Source of the DNA: Octopus vulgaris
Taxonomy: Eukaryota
Length of the DNA: 64,000 bases
Assembly: GCA_951406725.2 (NCBI GenBank)
Contig: OX597827.1
Location: forward strand, 7,006,001 to 7,070,000
Reading direction: 5' to 3'
How positions within the stretch are numbered: position 1 is the first letter of the stretch; each line of letters opens with the position of its first letter. This document shows positions 4,516 through 36,352 of this stretch, in pieces. A model generated the notes under the pieces. The model was not told the DNA's origin and made no database searches. It worked only from the letters and a program-made list of their open reading frames with translations. Both the position numbers and the translations under genes were made by a program.

Positions 4516-4847
4516 TTAGACGTCTGTTGCAGATAGAGGAGGAAGTGGAGGTACCTGGGGTGATGAAGGTACCTTTGGTAGTGTTGTTATTTTGGGTACA
4601 GCTGGCAGAGATGGTTTACAGTCTGAAGTAAACTGACTTTTCACTGGTACTGTAGAATGTTGTCCAGTTATGTTAGATGTGGTCCCAGTAATAGTCAAAG
4701 GTGTTTGGTCAATCGAACAGGAAGTGTTATTATCGACATTAGGTTGATGGTGATATCCATATTTGTTATCTCCCCTTGATCTGTTGAGTGTGTTTTGAAG
4801 TTGATTTCTTCTATTCCATGTCTGGTCACTTTGGTAACGACACAGAT
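4516..4847 (-). CDS. Protocadherin B, last exon (proline-rich cytoplasmic tail)
   Basis: Acceptor AG at 4848-4849, phase 1. (D)LCRYQSDQTWNRRNQL...LPAVPKITTLPKVPSSPQVPPLPPLSATDV*; paralogous exon in all units. Confidence 0.88.
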
Positions 4848-5456
4848 CTAAAAATATTGAGATTTTATACAAATTTACTTTGCAATGAAAAATTAAACTC
4901 TTTAAAATTTCTTTCATGCATAAAACTATTCACCATCTGTGCAGGTTTGCTTGCAAATTTTTAATTTCTAAGAAACAACTTGATAATTTATTGATAATTA
5001 AGAAGATAATTAAATTCAGATGGTTCTCATATTAACATTCTCATTTTTAATTAGGGATCAGTCTTGAAAAGGAATTTTCCAAGAAAAATATATGTAAAGA
5101 AATTTTAATAGAACATTTAATACAATCAATATCTTAACCCCTATTTCTGAAAGTGTTACAAATGGACAATAATCATTAATTTGAAATTAAATCATAGTCC
5201 TTTTCATTTGGAGACTGGTGGAATGAAAGCTCCCTTGTTTGAAAAGCATTCAATGGATTAGTTACAGAAAGAGCCTCCATGTGTAAAGCACTGTCTTAAT
5301 ATTCTACTCATCTGACTCATGCTAGCATAAGAAAAATGAACGTAAAAGGAATGAACAAACTAAATTAAATATATTTATTACACTCTCATTAGGAAATATA
5401 ATAGTTAATTTAAAAGTTTCTTACATCTGAAGAAATGCTTAGTATTTTTAACTTAC

Positions 5457-5607
5457 CTGGTAGTTCCTCATAATGTCCAGCACTACCGACACTCCAGCCA
5501 TGACCACTATCAGTTTGAGATGACAATGTTGACATCTCGTGAAATTGGTCAACACTGTTTAGTTCTCTGTAACCAGGAGACATACTTTCTTCTCTTGGAA
5601 CAAATAT
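5457..5607 (-). CDS. Protocadherin B, 151-nt cytoplasmic exon
   Basis: AG at 5608-5609, GTAAGT donor. IFVPREESMSPGYRELNSVDQFHEMSTLSSQTDSGHGWSVGSAGHYEELP; length identical in six copies. Confidence 0.92.
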
Positions 5608-9804: not shown

Positions 9805-10360
9805 ATATATAAATGAAGTTCAATCTTGCTTGCTTGCTTGCTTACAATGTTACACAGCCAAACTGGTGCATAAAGGGAAAATACTCTGAAAATAGTTTAA
9901 CCCAGACAGGGAAGAAACTCTAACCTTTCCTTTAAACACATTATGATGGGCAAAATATTTTAACGTGAAAATGACTTTTAAAATACGGTAAGTATTTTGT
10001 AAAAGATTCATTCGTAACCTTGGTGTGAAATAGTTTTTTTTCCATAGGTTTCTTTGAGTGCATTCAACATATCTCACCTCCAAAGATTTGGCTGCTATTC
10101 CTAGCACGCTTTACAACATAACAGCTATTTGCAATAAAGGACATAAAAAACCTGTTACATGGTAGCAGGGCATGCAAGAAATAGCAGCCAAATCTTTCCT
10201 TTTTCTGGGAAAAGGAGCTGTTTACGCCTGATTTCGATATCACATTCATTGAAAGCATGTGAAATAACATGGAAAAGAAAAAAATAACTCACAAAACAAA
10301 ACTCCATTGCTGGGAAACTTGGGACTTCCCAGGTGACAGAACGGGTCACGGGTAGTCTAG
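9805..10360 (+). mobile_element. Possible non-autonomous Helitron-like element
   Basis: Begins in TATATATAAATGAAG followed by (GCTT)n; ends ACGGGTCACGGGTAGTCTAG|T, similar in architecture to the 23542-23945 element. Confidence 0.4.
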
Positions 10361-10611
10361 TGTATATATAATGCTTATGTGTGCATTATGATGCAGGCAT
10401 GGTGTTGTGGTTGAGAAGTTGATTTCCCAAACACACAGATCCCAATAAATGGTATCTTGGCCCATTGTCTTTTACAATATTCCTGAGCTCACCAAAGTCT
10501 TTTGATGGATTTAGGGAATGGAAACTGAACGAAACCCATCATACGTGTGAGATAGGGGGAGTGTGTGAGTGTGATTGCATTTAAGTGGTGACATTTGTTA
10601 TTTAAATATAC

Positions 10612-10915
10612 ATCCTCATTTAACGTCCGCTTTCCATGCTAGCATGGGTTGGACGGTTCAACTGGGGTCTGGGAAGCCAGGAGGCTGCACCAGGCCCAGT
10701 CTGATCTGGCAGTGTTTTTACAGCTGGATGCACTTCCTAAGACCAACCACTCTGTGAGTGTAGTGGGTGTTTTTACGTGCCAGACGAGGCTGGCAACGGC
10801 CATGATCGGATGGTGCTTTTTATGTGCCACCGGCACAGAGGCCAGTCGGGGCGGCGCTGGCAATGGTCACGTTCGGATGGTTCTCTTACAAGCCACCAGC
10901 ACTGGTATCACAACT
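10612..10915 (-). mobile_element. SINE/RTE-type retroposon 3' fragment
   Basis: TTTAACGTCCGCTTTCCATGCTAGCATGGG...CAGCTGGATG..CTTCCTAA recurs at ~43078-43250 and reversed at ~29690-29820, with (CAT)n/(GAT)n tails. Confidence 0.65.
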
Positions 10916-12640
10916 AAACAAATTTTTTTTTTTTACTCTGCAAAGAGATAGACTTTTCATAACTTAGCACTAGACATGTAAACTTCAAGAGAAGAGTGGA
11001 AAATCATGTCTAAAAAGTTATTTTCTTTAAGTTGAATTAGCCCTTGAAAGAAGAAAATCAGGTATTTCAGTTGTGGGTTTGTACCATAGAAGCTGAAAGT
11101 GTTTGACTGTCAGTGTCTCCAAGTTTGAAAGAAGGAAGGAAGAATATTACATCCAAGCCAGAGACCTGAATTAAAAGCCCCTAACAGAGAATATATCACT
11201 GAAGACACACAAGCATCCGATGGCGATGTTATATAGACAGAAAAAGTTTTTGTAACTTTACTCTGTTACAGCTCATCTCTGGCAATAAAACAATGATTAT
11301 GTATTGCCAGTGATCTTCTCTTGACAGGGCAACCAACAACATTGCTTTTACAAAAGGGACACTCCAACATTTGCCATGGGATTATGGATTTGCCAGAACT
11401 CTCCATGAGATACATTACTATTACAATTACAGAAATATTGAAAGTTGATATTTATGAGAATCCTCAATATTTTATATGGTTCTGTGATCCTATAGAGGAT
11501 CTGCTAGCAACAGAACACAGCAATGAGTTCTACAAGTTTTAATCAGTACATGTCTTGCAAACAACTTGCACATGCAAGTGCTACCAGTCATAAAACTCCA
11601 CATACAGGAAGCCAGCTAGTGTATGGGGTCATCAGGAGAGAATGCGCGCCGTTTCGGGGCCTACCGCTTGACATTATCATGAAAACAGTCTTGTATTAAA
11701 ATCAACCCATACATACTCTACATCCAAAGTAGCTGTTCAAACTGCTAGAAATAAGGGATAAATCATCCTCAAATCACATTCTACCCTTTTGGAAATGGAT
11801 TCATTGAGTAAGGTAGAACCGACCTTTCATAGCATTGGAATCAGGCAAAATGATCATAGTCGGAAGGCTTACTTGATGAGCGGTGACCTGGGTCTAAACA
11901 ACAGCAACAAGACTAACACCTGAATTTCTTCCACAAATGAGTGAGTCCTAGGAGTCAATTTATCTGTTATGAGTAGTTGACAAATTTTCTTGCCATTAAA
12001 AAAAAGGAACACATTATACAAAGTAGCCTTTGATATTACTAAAAAGATAAGATGACTATGGCTGCAATGACTTTGATCATTGGATCTTTTCAGACAAGTT
12101 GACCAAGGGTTAAACTACAAGTTCAATAACTGCAACAGATAAATAACCTCACAACTGGTGATGAGAAATCAGAATAGCCTCCCTTGATTATTAAAAGTCT
12201 ACTTTTCTACTCTGACCTCAGTTCCTGTATAGATGGAGTATTTTGAAGATAATATCCTACTTAACTTATACACAAAGGAAAAAAATTAATCAAGATATTC
12301 TATTGTAAACCATTTTCTTTGATTACAATAATATCCGATTATTAACCAGTTTGTTGGCTCAGGTAACAATATATATAAAAAAGAATGATAGTAAAAAATA
12401 TTGATGGTTTAAAGATGTTAAATATTTGAAAAAATAACAGAACTTATTTAAAAAGTATTTTGTAGTGCTGGTATTTATATATACTATAGTATGTGACAAT
12501 TTAATTGTCTATTAAAGTGAGAGAATAGTATTCAAGTTAACACATTGTCTGTTATTCAGAAAGTTATTTTTATCAACATAAATAACAGAGAGATTACCAA
12601 ATGACTAAAATACAGATAAAAAGTTTTAATAAGTACTTAC

Positions 12641-12895
12641 CAACAGTTGTTATATATTTTTAAAGTTGTTACTGTACTGTTTAAAAGTTCTGGCATCAAA
12701 AAGTTGTAGTAGTAGCAGGAATTCTGAGCAGTTTGACATGTAATAGTGCTATGTAGTTCTATGAAGTGGGCTGTGTAGTATGTAATGTGTGCTGTAGCCA
12801 ATGACAAGCTGTCTTTTATTCCAGTGCAAGGAAACGGAAGTACAGCTTCCAGTTCTTGCAGTTAATAATGGGCTGACTCACAGACTAGTTTACTT
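12641..12895 (-). promoter_or_regulatory. Gene B non-coding 5' exon and conserved promoter-like cassette
   Basis: Donor CTGTTG|GTAAGT at 12641; CCAAT at 12798, ACGGAAGT and TGACTCA. Splicing to 9558 creates an in-frame TGA upstream of the ATG, so the exon is UTR. Confidence 0.75.
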
Positions 12896-13767
12896 AAGCC
12901 CACACACATACATATACATATCTATGTGTTACAGAATGAATAAGGTAGAATATATAATGTCTAGAATACTGAGGCAAAGCAATAAACTTATGAAAATATG
13001 ATTAAATATTTAGTTTTCCAAGATTTTTTAAAAAAATCTTTATATTATAAATTTGGTAAAAGTTGGAAAAGTTTCCAACATCAAAAGTTTAAAATTTTCA
13101 ATAACTTTTGCAAACCCACCATTATTTAGTAAAATTTTGGCAAAATTTATTAAAAAATACCCTTAAATGCTTTTCAATATATTTAACTCTTAATACTAAT
13201 TTCAAAATACGAAATTATGGCTTTGAATTATAGGCTCAACAATAATCAACATATGAAATGACTTTCTACACCTAAATGAATTTAGATTTAGAAGCTTAAA
13301 ATACTTATTTCAAAACAATAAGACTATATATATTTGTATTATTTGTATGCTGTCTGTTACTATATATATAGTCCAGCTAACTGGACTAATAAAGAATATT
13401 TTCTGATTATTGGAGGGTTTTTTTTTTTAACAATTATCAACTAATCAACAACTGATTTAATTATTTGTTACATTTCGATAATTACTTTTTTCCTTACACT
13501 ACATTAAAATATAGCAGCAAAGGTTTGTAGAAGTTTGAGGATCTTAGTGGACTTCAAAAACATTTTCTTATTTAGAATGACAGACTTTGATATTTTCCTT
13601 CTTACAAAGAATTAAATTTATCATAGCTATTGCATATGACTGAAGAAAATGTAGCCATACAAAAACAATATATAAATATATATATATAACATTAATTACT
13701 ATTTTACTAGTAAGATTTAATGAAATTTTATATCAATAGTTTTATGTGCATATTTGTGCATTGTTAG

Positions 13768-14069
13768 TTAATGTTCGATATTTGTTGGAGGCGCCTGATG
13801 TATCGAAGGTACTTTTGGTAGTGTTGTCACCTTAGGTACAGATGGTAGAGGTGGTATACAGATTGCCATTGCTACTGAAGGTGGTTGTTCAATTATGTTA
13901 GATGTGGTACCTGTTATAGTCAAAGGTATTTGGTCAGGGCAACAGGAAGTGTTCACGTCAACATTAGGTTCAGAGTTACATCCATTGTTATCTCCCCTTG
14001 ATCTGTTCAGTGTGTGTGGTAATTGGTTTCTTGTATTCCATGTGCGATCACTTTGGTAGCGACACAGAT
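13768..14069 (-). CDS. Orphan module C, last cytoplasmic exon (open, splice site intact)
   Basis: AG at 14070-14071. (D)LCRYQSDRTWNTRNQLPHTLNRSRGDNN...PPLPSVPKVTTLPKVPSIHQAPPTNIEH*. Confidence 0.7.
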
Positions 14070-15110
14070 CTGTAGAAATAGGGATTGAAGATTGACATCT
14101 CACTCAGAATTATAATAAAAATGTCAGTAAGTTCTGTAGTCTCTTGGTTACAACAAATATATATGGAAACATTTATTTTGAGTGATTTTAAGATATCTTT
14201 GGTACAAAATTTATTGAAAGAAATTCCTAAATTAAATTCATTTTTTTACAGTATTCTTTTATTTGATGATATATATATGTTTAAGTTCCTTGATTAAAAA
14301 ATATCAATATAATATCTAACCAGTGTAAAATAGAAACATGTTTGAGAAGTTTGCTTCGTATCCATTTATTTCCTACTCATAGAAATTGTTCAGCTAAATT
14401 TGATGATCTTTTATGTCATCTTTTTTTCAAGGAGCAGTTTGATGCATTGGGGAACAGTCGATGGCATTAGAGAGCATTGAAGGCGGCGAGCAGGCAGAAA
14501 CATTACCGCGCCATGCGAAATGCTTAACGGTATTTCGTCTGTCGTTACGTTGTGAAGCTGCTGGAGACTTTGGTCAAGCTTTGGGTGGTGTTGCTGCTTG
14601 GAGGCCACATATGTGTGAAAGCAGGACTCAGTACCTTGCCATATCTCCAGGAAGAATCAGAAGTGGTTGTAGAAGAAATTCTGTGATTTCATCAGCTCCG
14701 ATTTCTGTCTCCCACCCAATTACACATATTGTAATCTTATTGGCACTATGAGTGGGGCAAGGCCAAAAATGGTATCAACTACTTTTCTTGCAACACCAAG
14801 GCCAATCTGGTGACCAAGATCAAGGAGGTGTTTCAAGATCTACTCGGTGACACAGTGAGGAACACATTTGCCAGGTTCTGGAGTTGTCTTGAAGCCATGG
14901 TGGAAGCCAAGGAAATAGTTGGCATTGCAACGAGTATCCAACCATAGAAACCAAGCCAAAAAGGAAACTAATGAGCGAACACACCAAACTGACTGAGGTA
15001 ACCTCTCCAACCCATGCCAGCATGGAAAGTGGATGTAAAAAACCATGATGGTGAGGATTTACATAAATTATGATCTGCCACTGCAGAGATATTAGGCATA
15101 TTTAACTGAC

Positions 15111-15261
15111 CTGATAGTTCTTCATAGTGTCCAGCATTGCTGACACTCCATCCATGACCACAGTCCGTGGTAGATGACAATGTTGACATCCCACTGAAGG
15201 GGTTAGTGCTGTTTAGTTCTTTATAATTTGGTGACATACTTTCTTCTCTTGGAACAAATAT
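15111..15261 (-). CDS. Orphan module C, 151-nt cytoplasmic exon (open, splice sites intact)
   Basis: AG at 15262-15263, GTCAGT donor. IFVPREESMSPNYKELNSTNPFSGMSTLSSTTDCGHGWSVSNAGHYEELS. Confidence 0.7.
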
Positions 15262-15729
15262 CTATAAAAAAACAAAAAAACAAATGAGAAATAGAAAAAT
15301 ATTCTGAAGAATTGCAATAGATAAATGGTAATAGGTGATTCAATGAATAAACCAAAACCTATAACTTCCACATTAAGTTCCCTTAAAGAATAATTAAATT
15401 TCGTCACAACAGCAAAGGTTGAAATATTAATTAACGTATGTTATAGGATTCAAAGAATAAAAATGAAGTTATTCAATATTAAAAGAATTTTGAAAGAATA
15501 TAGCTATTTATGCTTTTATTGATTCTAAATGTCTGATGCAATATTTGAAATAAAATATATCAAAGAATTTTACTTTTTACAAGCTCTGATAAATTTTTAG
15601 TCTTTATGAAATAATTTCAATGTAGAATAAACATTTTGTTCACCCCATCTCAAATTTTGAAAAAAACCCCAGGCAAATAGGACAGTTTAATTAGAAAAAC
15701 AACTCTGAATAGATTATTAAAAATCCCAC

Positions 15730-16165
15730 CTGTTGATGATCTCTTAGGCTCAGATCTACCCATTGGTCAGATACACTTCTGCAGTGAATATCTTCTCTGT
15801 CTACCATTAGTTGCTGAGATTTCTTAAGATTTTTTTTTCCACTGTGTACTGAACCCCAGGAGGAACACAGGTAGGGTCAAATATATATTTTGATTGGCTG
15901 TTTAATGCAGGTGTAACCTTGTGGTACATATCAACAATGTTGTTATAGTTGTTGTCTGTCTGCTTCAGTCTATGAACTATACAGATCGATATAGAGATCA
16001 CTATAACAACTGATACAATCACAGCTGCTATAACAATAACAATCATCACATTCAATTGGAGACCATTACTTGATTCTGTTGTTGTCTTTGAAGGGGTCTT
16101 AAATATATTTGATGTGTTCTTACTAACTGTTAGAATCAAAGACTAAATTATTGTTGATGACAGAA
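15730..16165 (-). pseudogene. Orphan module C, truncated remnant of the ectodomain exon (end of EC6, TM, juxtamembrane)
   Basis: Homology to paralogs stops at ~16165. TTG>TAG near 16143-16145, +2 frameshift in the T run at ~15830-15838, donor GTGGGA at 15730. No EC1-EC5 or promoter block found before D's last exon. Confidence 0.85.
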
Positions 16166-16629
16166 AATTAAATCATATATTTTAATTCTTTATTTGCTTC
16201 ACATTCTAAAGATTAGGAAGTATTTAATTTATAACAAAGTAAGAAGAATTCTTTATGCTTCAATGCTTTAATGGAAACTAATCTAATATAAATCCTTAAA
16301 TATTACTATCAAGATAATGTCTATCATCACATTTCTACAAATAGACTAAAATTTTCTTCTTCAGGCTATTTGATGAGCCAGCATATTTTCTGTCTGAAAA
16401 TCTCTGTAAATCTTTAATGACTAATTAAAAAATAGTCAGTGTATTCATTAAAGTCCATTTCTTATATTTTTGTGTGAATTTCTGCCCAGAGTAATGTCAA
16501 TATATTTGATGTTATAGTGATTGCAATTTGCTCATTGCAGCCCCTGGCCTTCTTCAGGAACCTAGCATATTCAATGTCATCTCCAGAATTTCAAACTCAA
16601 GCCTTTAGTAAATCCATGCATTTTTTAAA

Positions 16630-16946
16630 AATTTATTTATGTGCCCTTTTCAAGCCTAGCCAGGCTCATGGGCCCGGTTTCCCGGTTTCTGTTGTGTATG
16701 TGTTCCCCCCCAGCTAGATGGGACACCAGTCCATCGCAGCGTTACTCAAGAAACAGGAAGAGAGAGTGAGAGAAAGTTGGGGCAAAAGAGTACAACAGGG
16801 GTCGCCACCACCCCCTGCCGGAGCCTTGGGGAGCTTTTAGGTGTTTTCGCTCAATAAACACACACAACGCCCGGTCTAGGAATCGAAATCGCAATCCTCC
16901 GACTGCGATTCTGCTGCCCTAACCACTGGGCCATTGCGCCTCCACA
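16630..16946 (-). mobile_element. tRNA-derived SINE (family 2)
   Basis: Minus-strand head TGTGGAGGCGCAATGGCCCAGTGGTTAGG...TTCGATTCC (Pol III A/B box-like). Head shared with 20300-20617; tail shared with 36542-36800. Confidence 0.75.
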
Positions 16947-17077
16947 AATCCATAGAATACATCAAATACAAAATATTCCTGGAGTGGACAACAAAATAAA
17001 AAAAAATGAATCTAAGCCTATATACCTTCCTGAATATGACAGACATGTGATGAATACTGGATGATATGATAGCTGAA

Positions 17078-17432
17078 ACATTCAACCATCTTACAAACAA
17101 TAACTCTGAGCACCTTTTCAAACTCCACCTGTCTAACACCAGTGGACATATTTACAAAGTTAGAAAACAGCACAGCTCCAATGACTTTAGGAAACATTTT
17201 TTCACGCTGAGAGTTGCTGAAGCATGGAACAAACTGCCGGCATCAGTTGTTAGTTGTCGGAGCACTGCATCCTTCAAAACTTCCATGCTTTCTGAGATTC
17301 GCCAACACTACACCTGACTCATACATTTTTCGCTTTCCAGACATTTTTACATTACTGCATGTACTTTATATGCACTTTCTGACAAGTTGCGGTGCACCTG
17401 AGCACTGTATACAATAATTTCATTATTATTAT
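17078..17432 (+). mobile_element. CR1/L2-type LINE 3' fragment
   Basis: ORF2 C-terminus-like TSGHIYKVRKQHS...RKHFFTLRVAEAWNKLP followed by 3' UTR and (ATT)n tail; four copies in the window. Confidence 0.8.
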
Positions 17433-17675
17433 TATATATATAACAACCAAAAGAATACTAGGTGAAATATATCAGTGTATTTCAAGAGTATGGGAAGGAG
17501 ATTACCAAAATAAGTGAATTATGTAGTTGTATGTGATATATATTGACCACTAACATGTCAATCCAAAAAAAAAAAAGAATCCTTGTATTATAAAATATGT
17601 TTAGAGGAATATTCTATTGATATTTGTATTATTTTCATTATGTAAGTTGTGAAGACAACTTATAAGATGCTTATA

Positions 17676-18010
17676 TTAATACAGTGTTTCCGTAGAGTTA
17701 CTGTGCATATTTTTTACTATGGAAACTGAAGGTACCTGAGGTATTGAAGGTACTTTTGGTTGTGCTGTTGCTTTAGGTACAGCTGGTAGTGCTGGTTTAC
17801 TGTTCGAAGTAAAGTGACTTGTCATTAGTACAGTAGATGGTTGTTCAGTTATCTTAGATGTATTATCAAATATAGTCAAAGGTATTTGGTTATCAGTGGT
17901 ATTGTCACCATTAGGTTGATATCCATTATTATCTCTCTTTGAACCACTGGGCGTGCATGGAAGTGGATTTCTCCTGTTCCACGTATGGTCACTTTGATAA
18001 CAGTACAGAC
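17676..18010 (-). CDS. Protocadherin D, last exon
   Basis: AG at 18011-18012. (G)LYCYQSDHTWNRRNPLP...QIPLTIFDNTSK... continues in frame into ORF 17676-17879. Confidence 0.85.
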
Positions 18011-19209
18011 CTGGAAGTAGATCGATTTTTAAAAAGTTATTAAAAACGAATTTGATAAAAATTACACTGAAGCTATTTTTTCTAAATTAGTTTTCCATTT
18101 ATTAAAAAATTTACTTAATTCCTGTTAAAACTATGGCTGCATATTCTATGATACTTAGAACACTGACAGTCTTTAGTATGCACAGAAATTAAATATCTAA
18201 AGACAAATGATGATTTCATAAATAAAATATCATATGGAAAATAAATTACTAGAATTAATACTATTTATATATTTAGTAGACTGATTGTGTAAACCTCTTG
18301 ACTTTTTAGTGTCTAACTATTTCAAAATTTATCAGTCGTGGTCAAAATGCTTCTCATAAGATACATGTAAAAATTAACACTTCCTTTCTCCAAGCTTAGA
18401 TTCGAAACCAAATCTGAGGAATCTCACTTGTCTGAACCACCACTGACCAAACAAGCATGAAAGAAATTTTCTTCATCTTGTCAAAAAAAAAATATTGATC
18501 ATCTCCCTTCGACCTCAGCCATGTCAGGTGAAGATCAAATGGACAGGAGCTGACCTATTTAAGCACAATGTATATCTGTCCTTCTAGCTGCCACGATATG
18601 TTATAAATACCTTGGTCAGTAAAAGGACAGATAGAAAAGATCTGGGACTCAGAGTGCATAAGATAGCTGACCAGTATTTTCTCTGATGAACAATGCACAC
18701 ACAGACAGTATTCACTTTTTACCCTAGCATATCCACAGATGTACATTGTCGAATTCCTCGCTGGCTCATTGCAGTTGGCAACAAACTGATGTAGTGAAAA
18801 CTTATGCATTACACCAGCAAATGCAAGTCCCACAAATAAATCATTTAAACTATAAAAAGATGTTGTTCCTTTGTTCACTTTGAAGGCATCCACATGCCTA
18901 TCACATCTGTTTACCTCAACACATTCTGATACACACCTTAACCACTACATACATGCTGCCCAAAAAGTAATTATGAGTGACTCAAGAATGTTTTAAACAT
19001 TCTACCTGCTGGGTTTTGAGAACTACAAAAATGATGACAAAATAAATGCATTTAATGAGATGAAATCAATCAGTATTCAGTGAGTTCACCTGTGGCTGTA
19101 TATATGTATTCTTACTTAATATATCTTTTAAAATGTATGTATATTGTGGGTCTTGAACTTAAGAAAATATCTTTTGGCTCTTATGAAGAGCAGCAAAAAG
19201 AACTTAGCC

Positions 19210-19860
19210 ATCACTAGTATTACGTAACATAGAATCGAACTGCGGCTTTATATAGCTATGGTACGACCTCACCTGGAATTTGCATCGCCGGTCTGGAACC
19301 CCTATCTTGCACAGGATATTAATCATCTGGAAGCCATTCAGTGACGTGCAGCCAAGAGAATACCCTCCATCAGGCATCTGCCATATTCTGAACGCCTTAC
19401 TATCCTGGGCATGGACACATTGAGACTCCAATGTCTGGCAGCTGACTTGGCAGACACCCATAAAATTATTAACCATCTTACAAACAATAACTCTGAGCAC
19501 CTTTTCAAACACCACCTGTCTAACACCCATGGACATGTTTACAAAGTCAGAAAATAGCTCAGCTACCATGACTTTAGGAAACATTTTTTCACGCTAAGAG
19601 TTGCTGAAGCATGGAACAAACTGCCAGCATCAGTTGTTAGTTGTCGGAGCACTGCATCCTTCAAAACTTCCATGCTTTCTGAGATTCGCCAACACTACAC
19701 CTGATTTTCTCCCCTCCATACATATGCAAGCATGTATCTGACTCATACACTGTTCACTTCCTAGGCATTTGTACATTACTGCATATACTTTATACACACT
19801 ATCTGACAAGTTGTGGTGCACCTGAGCACTGTATACAATAATTTCATTATTATTATTATT
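19210..19860 (+). mobile_element. CR1/L2-type LINE 3' fragment (longest copy)
   Basis: Degenerate LYIAMVRPHLEFASPVWNPYLAQDINHLEAIQ*RAAKRIP...RVAEAWNKLP and (ATT)n tail. Confidence 0.85.
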
Positions 19861-19888
19861 GAAGAGAGAGACAGTATTTTTAACTAAC

Positions 19889-20039
19889 CTGGCAGTTCCT
19901 CATAGTGATCAGCACTACCAACAACCCAGTCATGCCCACTATCAGTATGAGTGGACATTGCTGATATCTCATTGAATTCGTTAGGTCTGTTTAGCTCTTG
20001 GTAACCAGGAGATGAACTTTCTTCTCTTGGGAGAAATAC
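19889..20039 (-). CDS. Protocadherin D, 151-nt cytoplasmic exon
   Basis: AG at 20040-20041, GTTAGT donor. VFLPREESSSPGYQELNRPNEFNEISAMSTHTDSGHDWVVGSADHYEELP (manual translation). Confidence 0.9.
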
Positions 20040-20299
20040 CTAAAGTTTGAGACGTTATAATGAAGAGAAAATTTGAAGAAAGAAAAAAAAAAACAAATAC
20101 ACAGTTCAAGAGTAAAGCCAAAACCTGCAGCTGACATATATTACTAAGTTCCATAAAAGTATTTTCAGCCAACAAACATTAAATTAAACAAAATACATCA
20201 CTGTATGTGATGCTTATAAAGTACAGATAGAAATAAGAAAAAAACTACAGATGATGGTATTTGATAATTTAAGAATTTTGTAAGACTATATGGATTTAT

Positions 20300-20617
20300 A
20301 CGAGATATATCACGTGATCACGTGACCGACCAGACCATCAGATGTTGTTACACATCGCTGGTCACAATGCGTTCGCATTGTTTTAGCCTTCGAATGATGC
20401 CACTCCGCTGGCTAAGCGAGCAGGCCAACAGAAGAAAGAGTGGGAGAAAGAGTGGTGAAAGAGTACAGCAGGGATCACCACCCCCCTGCCGGAGCCTCGT
20501 GGAGCTTTTAGGTGTTTTCGCTCAATAAACACACACAATGCCCGGTCTGGGAATCGAAACCGCGATCCTGGGACCGCGAGTCCGCTGCCCTAACCACTAG
20601 GCCATTGCGCCTCCACA
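20300..20617 (-). mobile_element. tRNA-derived SINE (family 2 head, different body)
   Basis: Shares its head with 16750-16946. Confidence 0.75.
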
Positions 20618-20858
20618 AGATATATACATCAATGAAACAGTGAACAATAAAGTATAAAAAATTTAAAACCAATCATTTCAATCAATACACAAATCAATGA
20701 CTAATGCAACAGAATGATCAGGGCTTGTCAAATATCTCATCTTCAAGGAAGAGTTTATCTTCAAGTCATTTATACTGACTCACATTTTGGAAAAATTCTG
20801 ATATAGGACATCTTTTTTTTTTTAAAGTAATTCTAAAAATATAACTGAAAAATCTCAC

Positions 20859-23255
20859 CTGATGATGTTTTACTGAAGCTGGTTCAACCCGTCTGTCATT
20901 TGTCATAGTCCAGCAGTGAATATCTTCTCTGTCTACCATTGGTTGTTGAGATTTCTTCACATTTCTCTCCAATGTGTACTGAACTCCAGGAGGAACACAA
21001 GCAGGATAAAACATATATCTTGATTGCATATTTAATGCTGGTATAACACCATGGTACATATCAACACTACTATTATAGTTTCTATTTGTCTGCTTCAGTC
21101 TATGAACTATACAGATCGATATAGAGATCACTACGACAACTGATACGATCACAGCTGCTACAACAATAACAATCATCACATTCAATTGGAGACCATTACT
21201 TGATTCTGTTGTTGTCTTTGAAGGGGTCTTAAATATCTTTGATGTGTTCTTACTAACTGTGAGAGTCAAAGACAAAGTTGTTGTCGATGACAGAACTGGA
21301 CTGCCACTGTCTTTCACACCTAATTCCAGTTCATAGAATCCAGCATCATTTTGGTAAAGTGAGCGAGAGAAAGATAAGACACCAGAGTGATGGTTCATTT
21401 GAAATAAGTGTTTCTCATTACCTCTGAGTATTTCATATGTGAGGAAGGCATTGTGTTGACTGTCTCTGTCAGAGGCCCTAACAACTGTGATATCATGGTC
21501 AGAGTGGGGATGGTAGTGGACATTAAGACTGAAAGGGTCAACATTAGGGAAACTGAAATAGGGAGCATTATCATTTAAATCCATAACCTCAACAACAACA
21601 TTTGCTCTCTTCTCCAGTGATGGTGTTCCTTTATCTTTTACTAAAACCTTAAACTCATACAGGTTCTTTTCTTCTCTGTCTAGGGACTCAGTTGTGGAAA
21701 TGAATCCCACATCAGATATCTGAAATGGTAGAATATCTTTTCCATTAGATAATAGAGAATAGGTTAATTGTCCTCCATCTCCAATATCTGGGTCTGTGGC
21801 ATTGACATATCCAACAGGGAAGTCTTTGTGTTCATTTTCATAGGTGAGAAACTTAAATATGTCCTGACTAAACTGAGGTTGTACATCATTTATGTCAGTG
21901 ACCAGCACAGAAAACTGTTTCTCTACTTTCAATGGAGGTGAACCATTATCTTGACATTTAATGGTGAAATTAAAGCTTTTTTCTCTTTCTCTATCTATTT
22001 CACTCTTGACAACAACTTTGTATTTCTTTTCAGACATTGAGATAAGCTGAAGATATCTATTTTGTAAATGACATTTCACTTGTCCATTTACTCCACCGTC
22101 ATTGTCAGTAACTTTGACAAAAGCAACAAAACTGCCAATATTAGATGCTTCTGAGATGACAGCTGTGTTTCCAGTTGACTTTAAGACAAATGTGACATCA
22201 ATTTTGGGAGGATTGTTAAGATGACTGACACCATTTATAAAAACTGTGACTGTTGATGACATAGGTGGTTTACCATTATCTCTGGCATCAATAAATATCT
22301 CGTAAATCTCACCAAAATTAAATTCTTTCTTCAAAAATAGCTCCCCTGTTGCCTCCTCTAATTTAAAGCTTTCTTTTATCCTTTTAGGTGTTTTAGCATT
22401 ATTAAAGACATAAGAAATTCTTCCATTTTCCCCTTTATCTAAGTCTGATGCAGAGACCTTAACAAGAGGCTTGCTTCTCTGGTATGTATCATTTATAGTG
22501 ACATTGTAAATATTCTGGGAGAAAACAGGGAAATTATCATTTTTATCTCCCACTAATATTTTTATATCCAATACACCTTCCTTTGGTGGTGTTCCTTGAT
22601 CTTTGGCAATTAACTGAATATTGTACATATCTTTTGTCTCACGGTCTAAGGAACCTTCTAAAATTAGTTGCAATAAATCAGTTCCACGTAACTTAGAAAC
22701 AACCAATTGAAAAGGGACATTTTCATTTTCCTTCAGTTGATAATTGAGTTTAGAATTCCGAGAGCTAATATCGTTATCAATCGCATTTGGAATGATTTCT
22801 TTGATTCCTTTTGTCACACTTTCATCAAATGACACTTGAAATTCCTTATTTGGAAACATGGGAGAATTATCATTGACATCTTCTATTATAACTTTGATTT
22901 TTAATATCTTGATAACAGAATGGCCATGTTGAACTGCTACTTCCAAAATCCTGAAGCATTCCACATTAAATTGGCACAATGTTTCTGCATCCAATATGGC
23001 AGCTGTGTACAGCTGTCCTCCAGGTGTAACATTAAATAACTGAACACTTCCATCAGTACTACTCTGGAGTATTTTAAATGTCAGTTTGCTTCTATCATCT
23101 TGAGTCTGTATATCATCTAGTAAGTGCGTATCAGTGACAATATCTCCAATATAATTGTTTATATCATTGTTCTCTTTCACGCGGTAGCTATGATGCACAC
23201 ACCAGCAGCTTTCAGTCATTAACAACACCAACAGTATCACTGATAACATCTTCAT
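20859..23255 (-). CDS. Protocadherin D, ectodomain/TM exon; spliced product ~960 aa
   Basis: ORF 20766-23330; acceptor at 23275-23276, ATG at 23255 (MKMLSV...), donor CAG|GTGAGA at 20859. Confidence 0.95.
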
Positions 23256-23541
23256 TAGTATAGGATTTGCCAATCTGAAAGAAAAGCTAAATTGTATATA
23301 AATCATTCCCTGATAGAAAGTGAAATACAAATATATCTAGTGATTAACAATTCGAGTTGCTAACTCATAATCATCTCAAAACATAATGTACGTAATATCA
23401 AATAGCAATCAGAGATTTGGATATTAACTACTTTATTTGACCAATAATGTGCCTCAAATTCTAGCTTAAACAAATAAAGAACTTGACAGCTGTATTATAC
23501 ATTAGATGTTCATAAGTGTATTATTGCAACATTCACTCTCC

Positions 23542-23945
23542 TCTAGTATATTTTTATATATAAAAGAGAGGTTGTGTGCTGTCTGTCTCCTACGATTTAG
23601 ATTCCTAACTACTCCCACGTTTTGCGGTGCAGTTTAACCAAAACCGGGTATCTTATAGTCGTGATTCATATCGAGCCCTTCTGGGTATTAGCGCGCGTCT
23701 ACGATAAGTCTACGATTTAAAAAAAATTTACCATCATATTTTTCCCATTTTTAATGCATTTTTGGCATATATAAGGGAAGTAACTCTCTAAAAATTTATT
23801 ATTAAATCTCAGAACGTAAAAAGCTACAGTAACACCCACCTTTGTAGTTAGCCATATTGAGATGGCTATTATACTTTACATCTCTAAAAATGCTTATGTA
23901 GTTATTTCCCTTACAAACCCGAGCAACGCCGGGCGATACTGCTAG
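23542..23945 (+). mobile_element. Non-autonomous Helitron-like element
   Basis: 5' TC...TATATAAAAG; 3' hairpin CCCGAGCAACGCCGGG then CTAG|T. Same 3' end reversed at 57705-57750 and degenerate at ~42240-42269. Confidence 0.7.
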
Positions 23946-24470
23946 TCATTTATAATTCGGGAAAGAAACTATAAACACAGAATAACCAATTCTAATTTCA
24001 ATGTCAGTAATTTTGAGGGGAGAAGTCAAGTCAGTTATATCACTCACACTCCTTGACTGGTACTTATTTTATTGACCCTGAAAGGATTAAAGGCAAGGTC
24101 GATCTTGACAGAATTTGAACTCAGAACAAAATGAGTCGGAAGAAATACTGTGAAGCATTTTTTCTGTTGCTCTAACAATTCTCGCATTTTACTACTTTTG
24201 ATATGGCAAAAGAATAAGTTGCAAATTTAAGTGACTTAGGCATTCTTTTTTAATAGCTAAGATTATTAAAATGACTGATAGGAATAGCAGGGATTAGTGA
24301 AATAGTTTCACTGGCACTGCACCAAGAGAATCTCTCTCTTGGAAATGGTATTATCATGGAACAAAATCAGGGAGTGTTAGCAAGATCAGCCAAGTCTGAT
24401 TCCACTAGCTGAACTACTTCCTCTGAAGTATATACATATATATATACTTTATTTAAAAGCAGCAGAAATA

Positions 24471-24525
24471 TAACAAAAGCTGTTACTCAGAGTTTCGCGT
24501 TCCCGTTCGTCAGACAGTTTTGTTA
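24471..24525 (-). ncRNA. Minimal type I hammerhead ribozyme motif, sense to gene D intron 1
   Basis: Minus strand TAACAAAACTGT-CTGACGA-ACG GGAA CGC-GAAA-CTCTGAG-TA-ACAGCTTTTGTTA: stem I, CUGANGA core, stem II, GAAA, palindromic stem III, GUA cleavage triplet. Confidence 0.7.
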
Positions 24526-24714
24526 AAATTTTAACAAAGCTGCCTGATGAATGGGAACGTGAAACTGAGTAACAGTATTTGTTATATTTCTGCTGCTTTT
24601 AAATAAAGCATATTACTCTACCTCTGGTATTTAAGTACTCTTTTTTGCCACCTTCCACCTTGTTTCACATTTATGAGCTTACTCCGGTATATATTTATAT
24701 ATATATATAAAGGA

Positions 24715-25030: not shown

Positions 25031-26864
25031 CACAAACACACACACATATATAAGGAACAATTTCATTCCCGGGCAATGTCAAGTGCCTCTGCTAGTATCT
25101 ATCTATCTATCTATATATATATATATATATATAGCACTTAAGTATAGCTATATTAAAACTAGCTGTTTGGCCTCAATTTACATACACTTGAAAATAAAAT
25201 GTCAGTCGAATACTAGATTGGAATATGCATCAAGGAACTGGACTCTCCTCGTCATTTTCACTGGATTACAGCTGTTTTTGCAACAGGAAGCAATACACTC
25301 AGAGCTGAGTGTTAATGGGAAATCCTGTTGCTTCTTGGGAGCACTAAAAATTGAAAAGTATATAATTACCATCTCTGTATAGAGATGGTAATTATACACT
25401 TTTCAGAATCGTAGTTTTCGCTCGCATCTCAACTACAAACTGTTGGCCCGACATCAGGATATTTTCTCTTGTTCAAGTGAACCTCTAGGATTCGTCTTCA
25501 CTCTGAGCTCGTACCTAACAGAATATGCATTCTTCCTTCAACTAATCTCCTTTGAAGCAATTTCCTCTCACCAAGTCAACTGTCAACGTTTTGCCAATAA
25601 TTTCACATCGGAGCATTTCCGACATGGTGTCCGTCTTCATCTTCCTCACTGGTTCTTACCATGCAATCACCACTCTGAGCATGTGCAGTGGATGTGCACG
25701 CCAGATCTCAACAGTTTTCTATTGCATTCACCTGTCTCGAATTTTCCATGTGGCTGGACTTTGACAGCCATGCAGAACAGCATTCTCATCAACACCACCA
25801 ATACCACCGCCACCATCTCAGCCTTTGTACCTGACTACAACGCAAACACCACCACCACCACTTCACCACTAATCTCGACTCGTTCCTGCTCCATCTTGTG
25901 TACAGCAGCCGGATTTGTGGCCTTATACAGCAAATTCCAGTCACTCTGAGCACCTCACAGCTGGACAGCACTTCAAAAAGCTTTGTAATCAGAAATGTGA
26001 CATTTTGTTCACCAACCAGGCATTTAACAGCATTCATTGGAACAATTTCAACAAACTGAACATTCTGCATGTATCTCATCATGAGCTTTTCTCTTCCAAT
26101 TTCTTCTCTACTCAGCACCTCACCTTGTACACTCAGTCTTAGATGCTCAGTTCTTGCTGAAAGTTACTGTATCAGACTTTGCAATCGATGTTGCTTCACA
26201 ATGCTTTCAGAAGTTACACTTGCACATTATTTTACTGCTCATTGTTCGTGCATACATACACACATACATGCAGTCTGCTTCATGCTATCCAATCTCACAT
26301 TTCTAGGTTTATTCTAGCTGAATGCTTTTCTCAAGGCTTTCTCATCCGGCAACCAAGCTCCTTACGTGTTTTTGCCATGTGTCGCTTCTCTGGTTTGTGG
26401 GACGCACAAACCACCTCTTATAAACGCTTATATTTTTCTCTTTGCATCACATAGTATTCCATGCATTTTCTTCCTTGCATGTCAGAACTTCTCCCTTTTG
26501 CCACCATCCTTATGGCTTGACTCGCTTCGCTAGTCACTGTCACTTTTCTGGCACCTACAGCCTTCCCTCTGCAAACAACTCACTGTTTTGCAGGCAAAAT
26601 CATGGCACTGCTTATGTCACAGCAGCCAACATTGCACTCTTTTACACCTAGACTTTTGCATCCTGTGATTTCCAGTTCCCTGGACGTTAGCTATCACGGT
26701 TGCACATCAAGTTTCACTGGCTCTGTCTCACAGAAACCACCTTCCCAGGCAGCAAAATAAGAAGGACTTCCTTCAGCTTCCTTTTTGTAGTATATGCTGC
26801 ATCCACCTTACTCTGGACCTTCTTGTGTACTATCATACTCACACAAAAATTATCTAGAAATATG

Positions 26865-36056: not shown

Positions 36057-36352
36057 CTATAAATTGGTGATACCTAAGGTATTGAAGATACTGTCTGGCA
36101 GTGTTGTTACTTTAGGTACATCTGGTGGAGGTGGATTACTGTATGAAGTAAACTGACTTGTCATTGGTACTGAAACTGGTTGTTCAGTTAAATTCCATGT
36201 GGTACCAGGTATTTGGTCAGGATAACAGGTCGTGTTTATGTCAGCGTTATGGTGATAATATCTGTTATTGTTATCTCCCTGTGATCTGTTCAGTGTAGGT
36301 GAAAGTTGATTTCTCCTGTTCCATGTAAGTTCACCTTGGTAACGGCACAGGT
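36057..36352 (-). CDS. Protocadherin E, last exon (C-terminal end frameshifted relative to paralogs)
   Basis: AG at 36353-36354. Manual translation (D)LCRYQGELTWNRRNQLSPTLNRSQGDNN...PPPPDVPKVTTLPDSIFNTLGITNL*. Confidence 0.82.

Follow-up and report, generated by a model that had tools for sequence, protein, structure and literature searches.

Downstream of the protocadherin gene D, on the same strand, lies C, a protocadherin paralog stripped of everything 5' of the end of its sixth cadherin repeat (EC6), whose exons 2 and 3 appear spliced in transcript-like contigs. The reading we judge likeliest, at roughly even confidence, is that these tail exons have been captured by read-through transcripts of D, the likeliest product being a D protein with a tandem D and C tail. 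The fused protein is already encoded in a public model, CAI9732431.1; what is new here is contig support for the donor and for the splicing of C, though not for the junction as a whole.

Results and discussion

Array setting and shared gene architecture

All coordinates refer to the window, the whole 64-kb stretch of DNA analysed, and the main features are collected in Table 1. An ORF survey revealed a minus-strand tandem protocadherin array with five complete genes, B, D, E, F and G, and the start of a further gene, A. The large first exon of the complete genes encodes the signal, EC1-6, the transmembrane segment (TM) and a variable cytoplasmic part (ORFs and Pfam), and each of the five has its own open exon 2 and exon 3. 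Exon 2 measures 151 nt, with phase 0/1, in all six genes when C is counted. A TTTCAG acceptor lies just 5' of the ATG in 5/5 complete genes, so their promoters and 5' exons sit elsewhere and homology cannot locate the promoters. As in a coleoid-type array, these are same-strand multi-exon paralogs with homogenised segments and with synteny in O. sinensis.

Table 1. Features of the D-C region, in window coordinates
Feature	Position	Strand	Evidence or remark
Gene D large coding exon (signal, EC1-6, TM, variable cytoplasmic part)	20859..23255	-	ORF, Pfam cadherin repeats
Gene D exon 2, 151 nt, DSGHD	19889..20039	-	X16 record 11 aligns over 19899-20037
Gene D last exon with own stop	17676..18010	-	O. 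sinensis D isoforms X1 and X2 end in the same tail
Cryptic phase-0 donor CAG/GTACCT in D last exon	17730..17738	-	Last exonic base 17736; used in models P0001 and P0136
Dispersed repeats between D and C	16626..17436	.	LINE-like fragment 17084-17436, SINE-like pieces 16626-16947 (class names inferred); self-BLAST
C exon-1 remnant (last EC6 strand, TM, variable cytoplasmic part)	15730..16165	-	Alignment to paralogs
C exon 2, 151 nt, open, DCGHG	15111..15261	-	Acceptor tract the most pyrimidine-rich of 13 compared (0.86)
C last exon, open to TAA	13768..14069	-	ATTAAA 47 nt past the stop; contigs in X13, X16 and X20

EC4-EC6 are near-identical across the paralogs (3-30 private differences per 900 nt). 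EC1-3 are 63-72% identical, against near-identity from EC4 to TM, a pattern consistent with gene conversion that spares the recognition domains while homogenising EC4-TM of B, D, E, F and G. B and D share a 323-nt exact match in this membrane-proximal half (EC4-TM, e.g. 21050-22200). Among the public models, P0148 extends gene A and contains two copies of a last exon that are 98-99% identical to that of B (4570-4848), and tails are thus also homogenised further down the array.

Several further features of the array were observed. The last exon of E is apparently frameshifted near its end (36057-36100), where it has a phase-1 cryptic donor and finishes with DSIFNTLGITNL; the O. sinensis model P0130 carries the same DSIFNTLGITNL ending. 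A candidate upstream exon of gene B at 11351-11500 is used by the O. sinensis chain model described below, and run X16 has a depth of 18.1 at 11466. Two palindromic stretches lie upstream of D, at 24442-24613 (88% over 174 nt) and 25352-25405 (93% over 54 nt). Rfam returned no matches across 12000-24400.

C is a headless paralog and its truncation is real

Similarity of C to each of B, D, E, F and G begins exactly at 16165, at 85-92% identity in alignment. An earlier note, made from this DNA alone, had held that C lost its promoter, EC1-EC5 and most of EC6; the alignment bears out the ectodomain loss, and loss of the promoter is inferred only. The note was right that the remnant carries a stop and a frameshift: a TTG>TAG change at 16145-16143 and, at 15830-15838, a run of nine T on the plus strand that aligns as two extra letters (+2). 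The exon-1 donor at 15730 is retained, as are the introns of 468 and 1041 nt. A 5' deletion, a TAG and a frameshift in a gene that keeps its introns are the lesions of an unprocessed pseudogene. The note's placement of C 1.5-4 kb downstream of D's last exon on the same strand agrees with the D stop at 17676, and self-BLAST of the 1.5-kb stretch between D and C turned up nothing but repeats.

The stop codon change also creates TTTAG/TCT, which the note had proposed as a weak phase-0 acceptor candidate at 16142. That description fits: its pyrimidine tract scores 0.62, and an O. sinensis chain model enters there.

The same note had named misassembly of the truncation as a way for its idea to fail. 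A contig from a second DNA source (run X4, organism label B, record 29) spans 16087-16650 with 17 differences and no gaps, reaching 78 and 485 letters either side of 16165; with the breakpoint bridged in this way, misassembly is unlikely. X4 differs from the window at 83 of 4392 letters (1.9%) over seven listed pieces. In O. sinensis the chain model XP_029644520.2 has the order G-F-E-D-C-B and starts C at the same place near TM. The C tail is also listed, on two O. sinensis records, as stand-alone loci annotated from an internal Met. We thus regard an assembly artefact as very improbable. The near-identical EC4-EC6 would be a setting for assembly collapse, and a homopolymer error could account for the 9-T run; against an artefact stand the ungapped X4 contig, the same headless C on two O. 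sinensis records and a remnant with private changes of its own.

The C lineage itself is older, as indicated by a Logan protein that is 75% identical to C exon 3, compared with 63% to that of B, and that is without the in-frame deletion of C. X16 (label A) shares two variant letters with X4 (label B), at 17827 and 17850, and its alleles there are accordingly nearer label B than the window.

The C tail exons

Exons 2 and 3 of C form an open 150-aa tail with intact splice sites, which upholds the note's statement that both exons are open, keep their AG/GT sites and have the correct phases. The tail was also said to be distinct in reading DCGHG; the motif is present, and its uniqueness did not survive comparison, DCGHG being found also in the O. 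bimaculoides model P0003. In a tree of 35 tails no O. bimaculoides tail groups with C, P0003 included. The last exon of C is 100% identical to the end of P0001 (CAI9732431.1). Among the acceptors, 15261 has a pyrimidine tract of 0.86 and the other 11 tail acceptors range from 0.52 to 0.76; an alternative acceptor between D and C, at 16978, scores 0.81.

The first 29 nt of exon 2 are identical in B (5579-5607) and C (15233-15261); other pairs share at most 14. This shared start hints at local gene conversion, and it renders short-read junctions there ambiguous.

The motifs DSGHG and YQSDxTW presumably resemble motifs of vertebrate delta-protocadherins. Profile searches with the octopus tails gave no backing for this likeness, and vertebrate tails showed no sequence similarity to these octopus tails in such searches.

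Transcript-like contigs over the C exons

Twenty-four runs were listed, none on record as RNA. Eight that were guessed to be RNA contain 0.09-0.14 of the query words, close to the 0.17 of the query that C exons 2 and 3 make up; three further runs guessed to be RNA contain at most 0.04. Contigs of three of these eight RNA-like runs (X13, X16 and X20, from three studies under two organism labels) and of the DNA run X4 were aligned to 9900-24400, a stretch that holds D and C, with E, F and G lying beyond it. The three were chosen because they contain C, and their RNA nature is a guess.

C-specific contigs cover exon 3 in 3/3 RNA-like runs, with 0, 1 and 4 differences where the paralogs are at most 76% identical. 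This cover follows from selecting the runs for C sequence, and the contig ends are more telling. X13 record 2 matches 15111-15246 with no differences and leaves exactly at the donor 15111 with 28 letters over. The X13 bin 13772-14255 has a depth of 2.72, matching the sum of record 1 and 28 letters at the depth of record 2 (2.724); record 1 by itself gives 2.585. The likely reading, from this one run, is that X13 record 2 crosses the splice from C exon 2 to exon 3. Absence of reads over the C exons, coupled with neutral evolution, had been named as a refutation; as to the reads, C-specific RNA-like contigs cover these exons, with a splice edge at the exon-2 donor.

Other coverage data were set aside. 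X20 record 18, on the TM remnant, was rejected as a sign of remnant expression, its three listed variants matching all five paralogs. Residual depth in the bin 15224-15707 was uninformative as a clue to the acceptor. X16 contigs along D and C have similar depths (4.7-6.4), which cannot rank or link the genes.

A cryptic donor in D and a probable D-C junction

Gene D is the likely source of the transcripts reaching C. Contigs lie on D exon 1 at 22216-22516 and 22591-22860 in X13 and at 22293-22468 in X16, and X16 record 11 aligns over 19899-20037, leaving near the D exon-2 edge as an exon 1-exon 2 joint would. X16 record 10 aligns over 17736-17898 at a depth of 6.4 and stops exactly at 17736 with 27 letters over, while the X4 DNA record 30 is unbroken through that point. 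The evidence for the D donor is thus one contig in one of the three RNA-like runs. Paralogs B and G have the same cryptic donor site; phase-0 AG/GTA donors occur in the last exons of B, D and G at 4555, 4573, 17736, 56191 and 56209.

The 27-letter end was rejected as proof of the acceptor because it is non-specific. It fits C exon 2, B exon 2 (which has the same first 29 nt) and 81 of the 416 AG sites in 17735-9900, such as 16978 and 14069. An end of this kind is what a 31-mer assembly is expected to give if a join to C exon 2 merges with the B exon 1-exon 2 path. We take 15261 as the partner on account of its frame, its 2.5-kb distance from the donor, the strongest tract, the public model P0001 and the splicing of C exon 2. 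The 17736>15261 junction is in frame. D and C are adjacent, on the same strand and less than 10 kb apart, the spacing of read-through chimeras; gene E lies more than 20 kb from C.

Depth in bins was recorded as coverage and not weighed as evidence: over the last exon of D the bin depth is 0 for X13 and X20 and 2.16 for X16, where record 10 accounts for 2.155 and 17644-17735 is empty, and in the bin of D intron 2 (18612-19095) all three RNA-like runs stand at 0. The first poly(A) hexamer lies 1039 nt past the D stop, against 729-1380 nt for E, F and G; it was rejected as a D-specific read-through cue, D falling within the range of the others.

Public gene models

CAI9732431.1 (P0001, O. vulgaris, 1091 aa) joins D exons 1 to 3, the last of them as far as VPSIPQ, to C exons 2 and 3. 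Residues 1-360 of D are 100% identical to it, and its identity with the D + C product rests on aligned segments and on length (1090+1). P0001 is an automatic model without comment, and its annotation holds chimeric neighbours that are gene fusions (P0002, P0132 and P0148); several public O. vulgaris models exit last exons at Q/VP or K/VP positions. Given these fusions and repeated exits, such models are weak evidence. XP_029644520.2 is a 6653-aa chain of eight genes, in which D passes from the position of donor 17736 to SLTLTV, the position of 16142, and exits at MYHK to C exon 2. In the O. sinensis RefSeq set, D ends in its own last exon in isoforms X1 and X2 (in frame) and X3 (which skips exon 2), and also in P0127, so a D-C fusion would be no more than an alternative form.

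A scan of 35 tail-bearing proteins gave two that link D to C, both through the last exon of D. The note had offered C as an alternative cytoplasmic tail for D by way of 20859>15261 or 19889>14069. D does feed C in two public models; the two proposed junctions are absent from the 35 tail-bearing proteins and from the 15 contig joints listed of 321 (a list mostly of DNA-run repeats, in which no splice junction stands with both its ends), and a cryptic donor inside the last exon of D would add the C tail to that of D rather than swap it. A junction-spanning short protein was sought among 33 candidates, of which seven gave hits, none spanning it.

One downstream exon, beginning with ICATPK, closes both the O. 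vulgaris model P0149 and the O. bimaculoides model P0140. It may be an alternative terminal exon that is conserved and lies outside the 64-kb window.

Selection and age of C

Private changes were counted over the same 249 nt in each gene. The C remnant has nine (six non-synonymous or stop, three synonymous), against one to three in B, E, F and G and 11 in D, 10 of these at the far end. Those of C cluster by the breakpoint, with four of the nine in the first 22 nt (p ~0.005) and five in the first 31 nt (p ~0.002), and five of the 30 invariant positions adjoining the breakpoint are changed (17%). The clustering could stem from gene conversion that keeps repairing the interior, the deletion then being older than it appears, or from an acceptor being favoured.

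In simulations the C frame and its three splice dinucleotides survived with probability 0.16-0.45 when divergence was 2%, 0.04-0.26 when it was 3.5% and less than 0.03 when it was 10%. The intactness of the C tail is therefore uninformative unless the deletion is old. Pairwise dN/dS is 0.40 for the C tail and 0.39-0.48 for the complete genes, values that mostly reflect history before the deletion. Between O. vulgaris and O. sinensis the C tail differs at 4 of 130 residues and the other five tails at 17 of 663 (Fisher p=0.76, a low-power test). Neither dN/dS nor this species comparison revealed constraint on the C tail. C exon 2 has seven non-synonymous private changes, compared with none to two in B, E, F and G. 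In O. sinensis both records of C lack the last 12 residues and carry YQGDCTW, which would be mild signs of relaxation.

The tail of D (17676-20039) is the most divergent in the array: over 62 columns that are otherwise invariant it has 18 private changes, where the other tails have 2-10, and its tree stem is 0.44; it differs from O. sinensis at just three of 161 residues. A complete gene thus has more private tail changes than C, and divergence does not in itself mean decay.

A model for capture of the C tail and its competitors

The capture of the C tail by D would proceed as follows. The observed starting point is that a deletion left the C tail exons 2.5 kb below the last exon of D. Transcripts that presumably read through past the D 3' end would exit the last exon at the cryptic phase-0 donor 17736, as seen in one run, and this donor would join the most pyrimidine-rich nearby in-frame acceptor, 15261, bypassing the dead TM remnant. 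C exon 2 would then be spliced at its own donor, again as seen in one run, and, by depth arithmetic, probably onto exon 3. The predicted product is a 1091-aa D whose cytoplasmic tail has two conserved motif blocks, that of D minus its last 19 residues and then that of C, and which would be made beside the normal 960-aa D according to competition between splicing and D 3'-end formation. The long form could be either selected or merely tolerated.

A less probable account, though one we take seriously, is that C is a young unprocessed pseudogene, reached by leaky read-through or transcribed from a local start (repeat-derived or surviving), with no D-linked protein and with 17736 leading to another terminal exon. 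The decay of the remnant and the private changes of exon 2 speak for it, as do the truncated C of O. sinensis, annotated on its own, and the acceptor at 16978; chance alone could plausibly leave the frame intact at 2-3.5% divergence, and fragmentary frames occur throughout squid clusters according to Albertin 2022 (PMC9068888). It has to contend with splicing at the C exon-2 donor and with two public annotations that chain the 17736 donor of D to C. If the 17% at the breakpoint dates the deletion, an open tail is unlikely without selection, and the even greater private divergence of the D tail removes divergence as a sufficient sign of decay. A direct swap, in which D 20859 or 19889 is spliced to C exon 2 or exon 3 to give a single alternative tail, appears rather improbable. 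Either junction would keep the frame (948 residues, counted from the second Met-Lys codon), the phases are identical in 6/6 genes, the C acceptor tract is strong and the skipping of D exon 2 in O. sinensis X3 implies flexible D splicing. Set against this, both proteins that link D to C go via the last exon of D, the X16 contigs run along exons 2 and 3 of D itself, and the 15 joints listed of 321, a list swamped by repeats, include no such joint.

Use of the new AG at 16143-16144 seems quite improbable. By this route D 17736>16142 would add a second TM, or a premature stop would lead to decay. XP_029644520.2 does enter at SLTLTV and leave at MYHK for C exon 2, and the changes clustered just before the AG make the tract more T-rich. 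The tract is nonetheless weak, reading on to the normal donor meets the frameshift and stops inside the remnant, and the supporting model is a chain of eight genes; moreover, the clustering could arise equally if gene conversion fails close to where homology ends, and a second TM would presumably place the C tail extracellularly. That the C tail is a selected ectodomain-less module spliced from D and also from E, F and G is, in our estimate, highly doubtful. If true, it would be the first cephalopod protocadherin tail common to several first exons and an early stage of the vertebrate constant-exon design, arrived at by ectodomain loss and read-through. The earlier suggestion that C is an intermediate toward shared constant exons is speculation.

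Comparison with known systems

A literature search that excluded subscription papers and supplements found no account of this locus or of cephalopod tail capture. According to PMC9068888, squid protocadherin clusters contain fragmentary frames that are possible pseudogenes, first exons in cephalopods are not spliced to shared final exons, and cephalopod protocadherin diversity is attributed to whole-gene duplication only, without inter-unit splicing. The coleoid sub-arrays, as described in PMC9068888 and PMC9795677, are likewise head-to-tail whole-gene duplicates, homogenised by gene conversion with fragments between, and C is such a fragment. The difference is that fragments elsewhere are possible pseudogenes, whereas the tail exons of C appear spliced and are likely reached from a neighbour. 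A headless paralog tail captured in frame by its neighbour would, if true, be a small exception to the view that there is no inter-unit splicing, and it suggests that not all of the fragmentary frames in such clusters lie silent. If instead C is decaying neutrally, it is an ordinary decaying paralog in an array prone to gene conversion.

Read-through chimeras, among them gene-pseudogene pairs such as KLK4-KRSP1 (PMC4422297), likewise involve adjacent genes on the same strand less than 10 kb apart, with an upstream donor joined to a downstream exon 2. The octopus partners differ in being paralogs, in the duplication of a motif block and in an arrangement found in two octopus species. Being paralogs with matching phases, D and C join in frame. 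Matching phases, a cryptic last-exon donor and a deletion that brings an acceptor close would together provide a route to sharing or stacking tails, and such a route bears on how constant exons could arise.

As described in PMC7811963 and PMC4835542 (the comparison literature also includes PMC6339937), vertebrate Pcdh-alpha/gamma and the 5' cassettes of chelicerate sDscam resemble the octopus genes in having a large first exon for six EC repeats, TM and a variable cytoplasmic part, followed by small tail exons of fixed phase. A tail module without its own ectodomain, lying downstream, is a further likeness. In Pcdh-alpha/gamma and sDscam, however, many tail-less variable exons share one set of tail exons; octopus C lost its ectodomain, not its tail. 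Vertebrate clusters also rely, according to PMC7811963, on stochastic promoter choice through CTCF sites and enhancers. In the octopus array all five complete genes keep their tails, D is the only one implicated and the likely product is additive. The array thus falls outside the vertebrate variable/constant system as PMC7811963 defines it.
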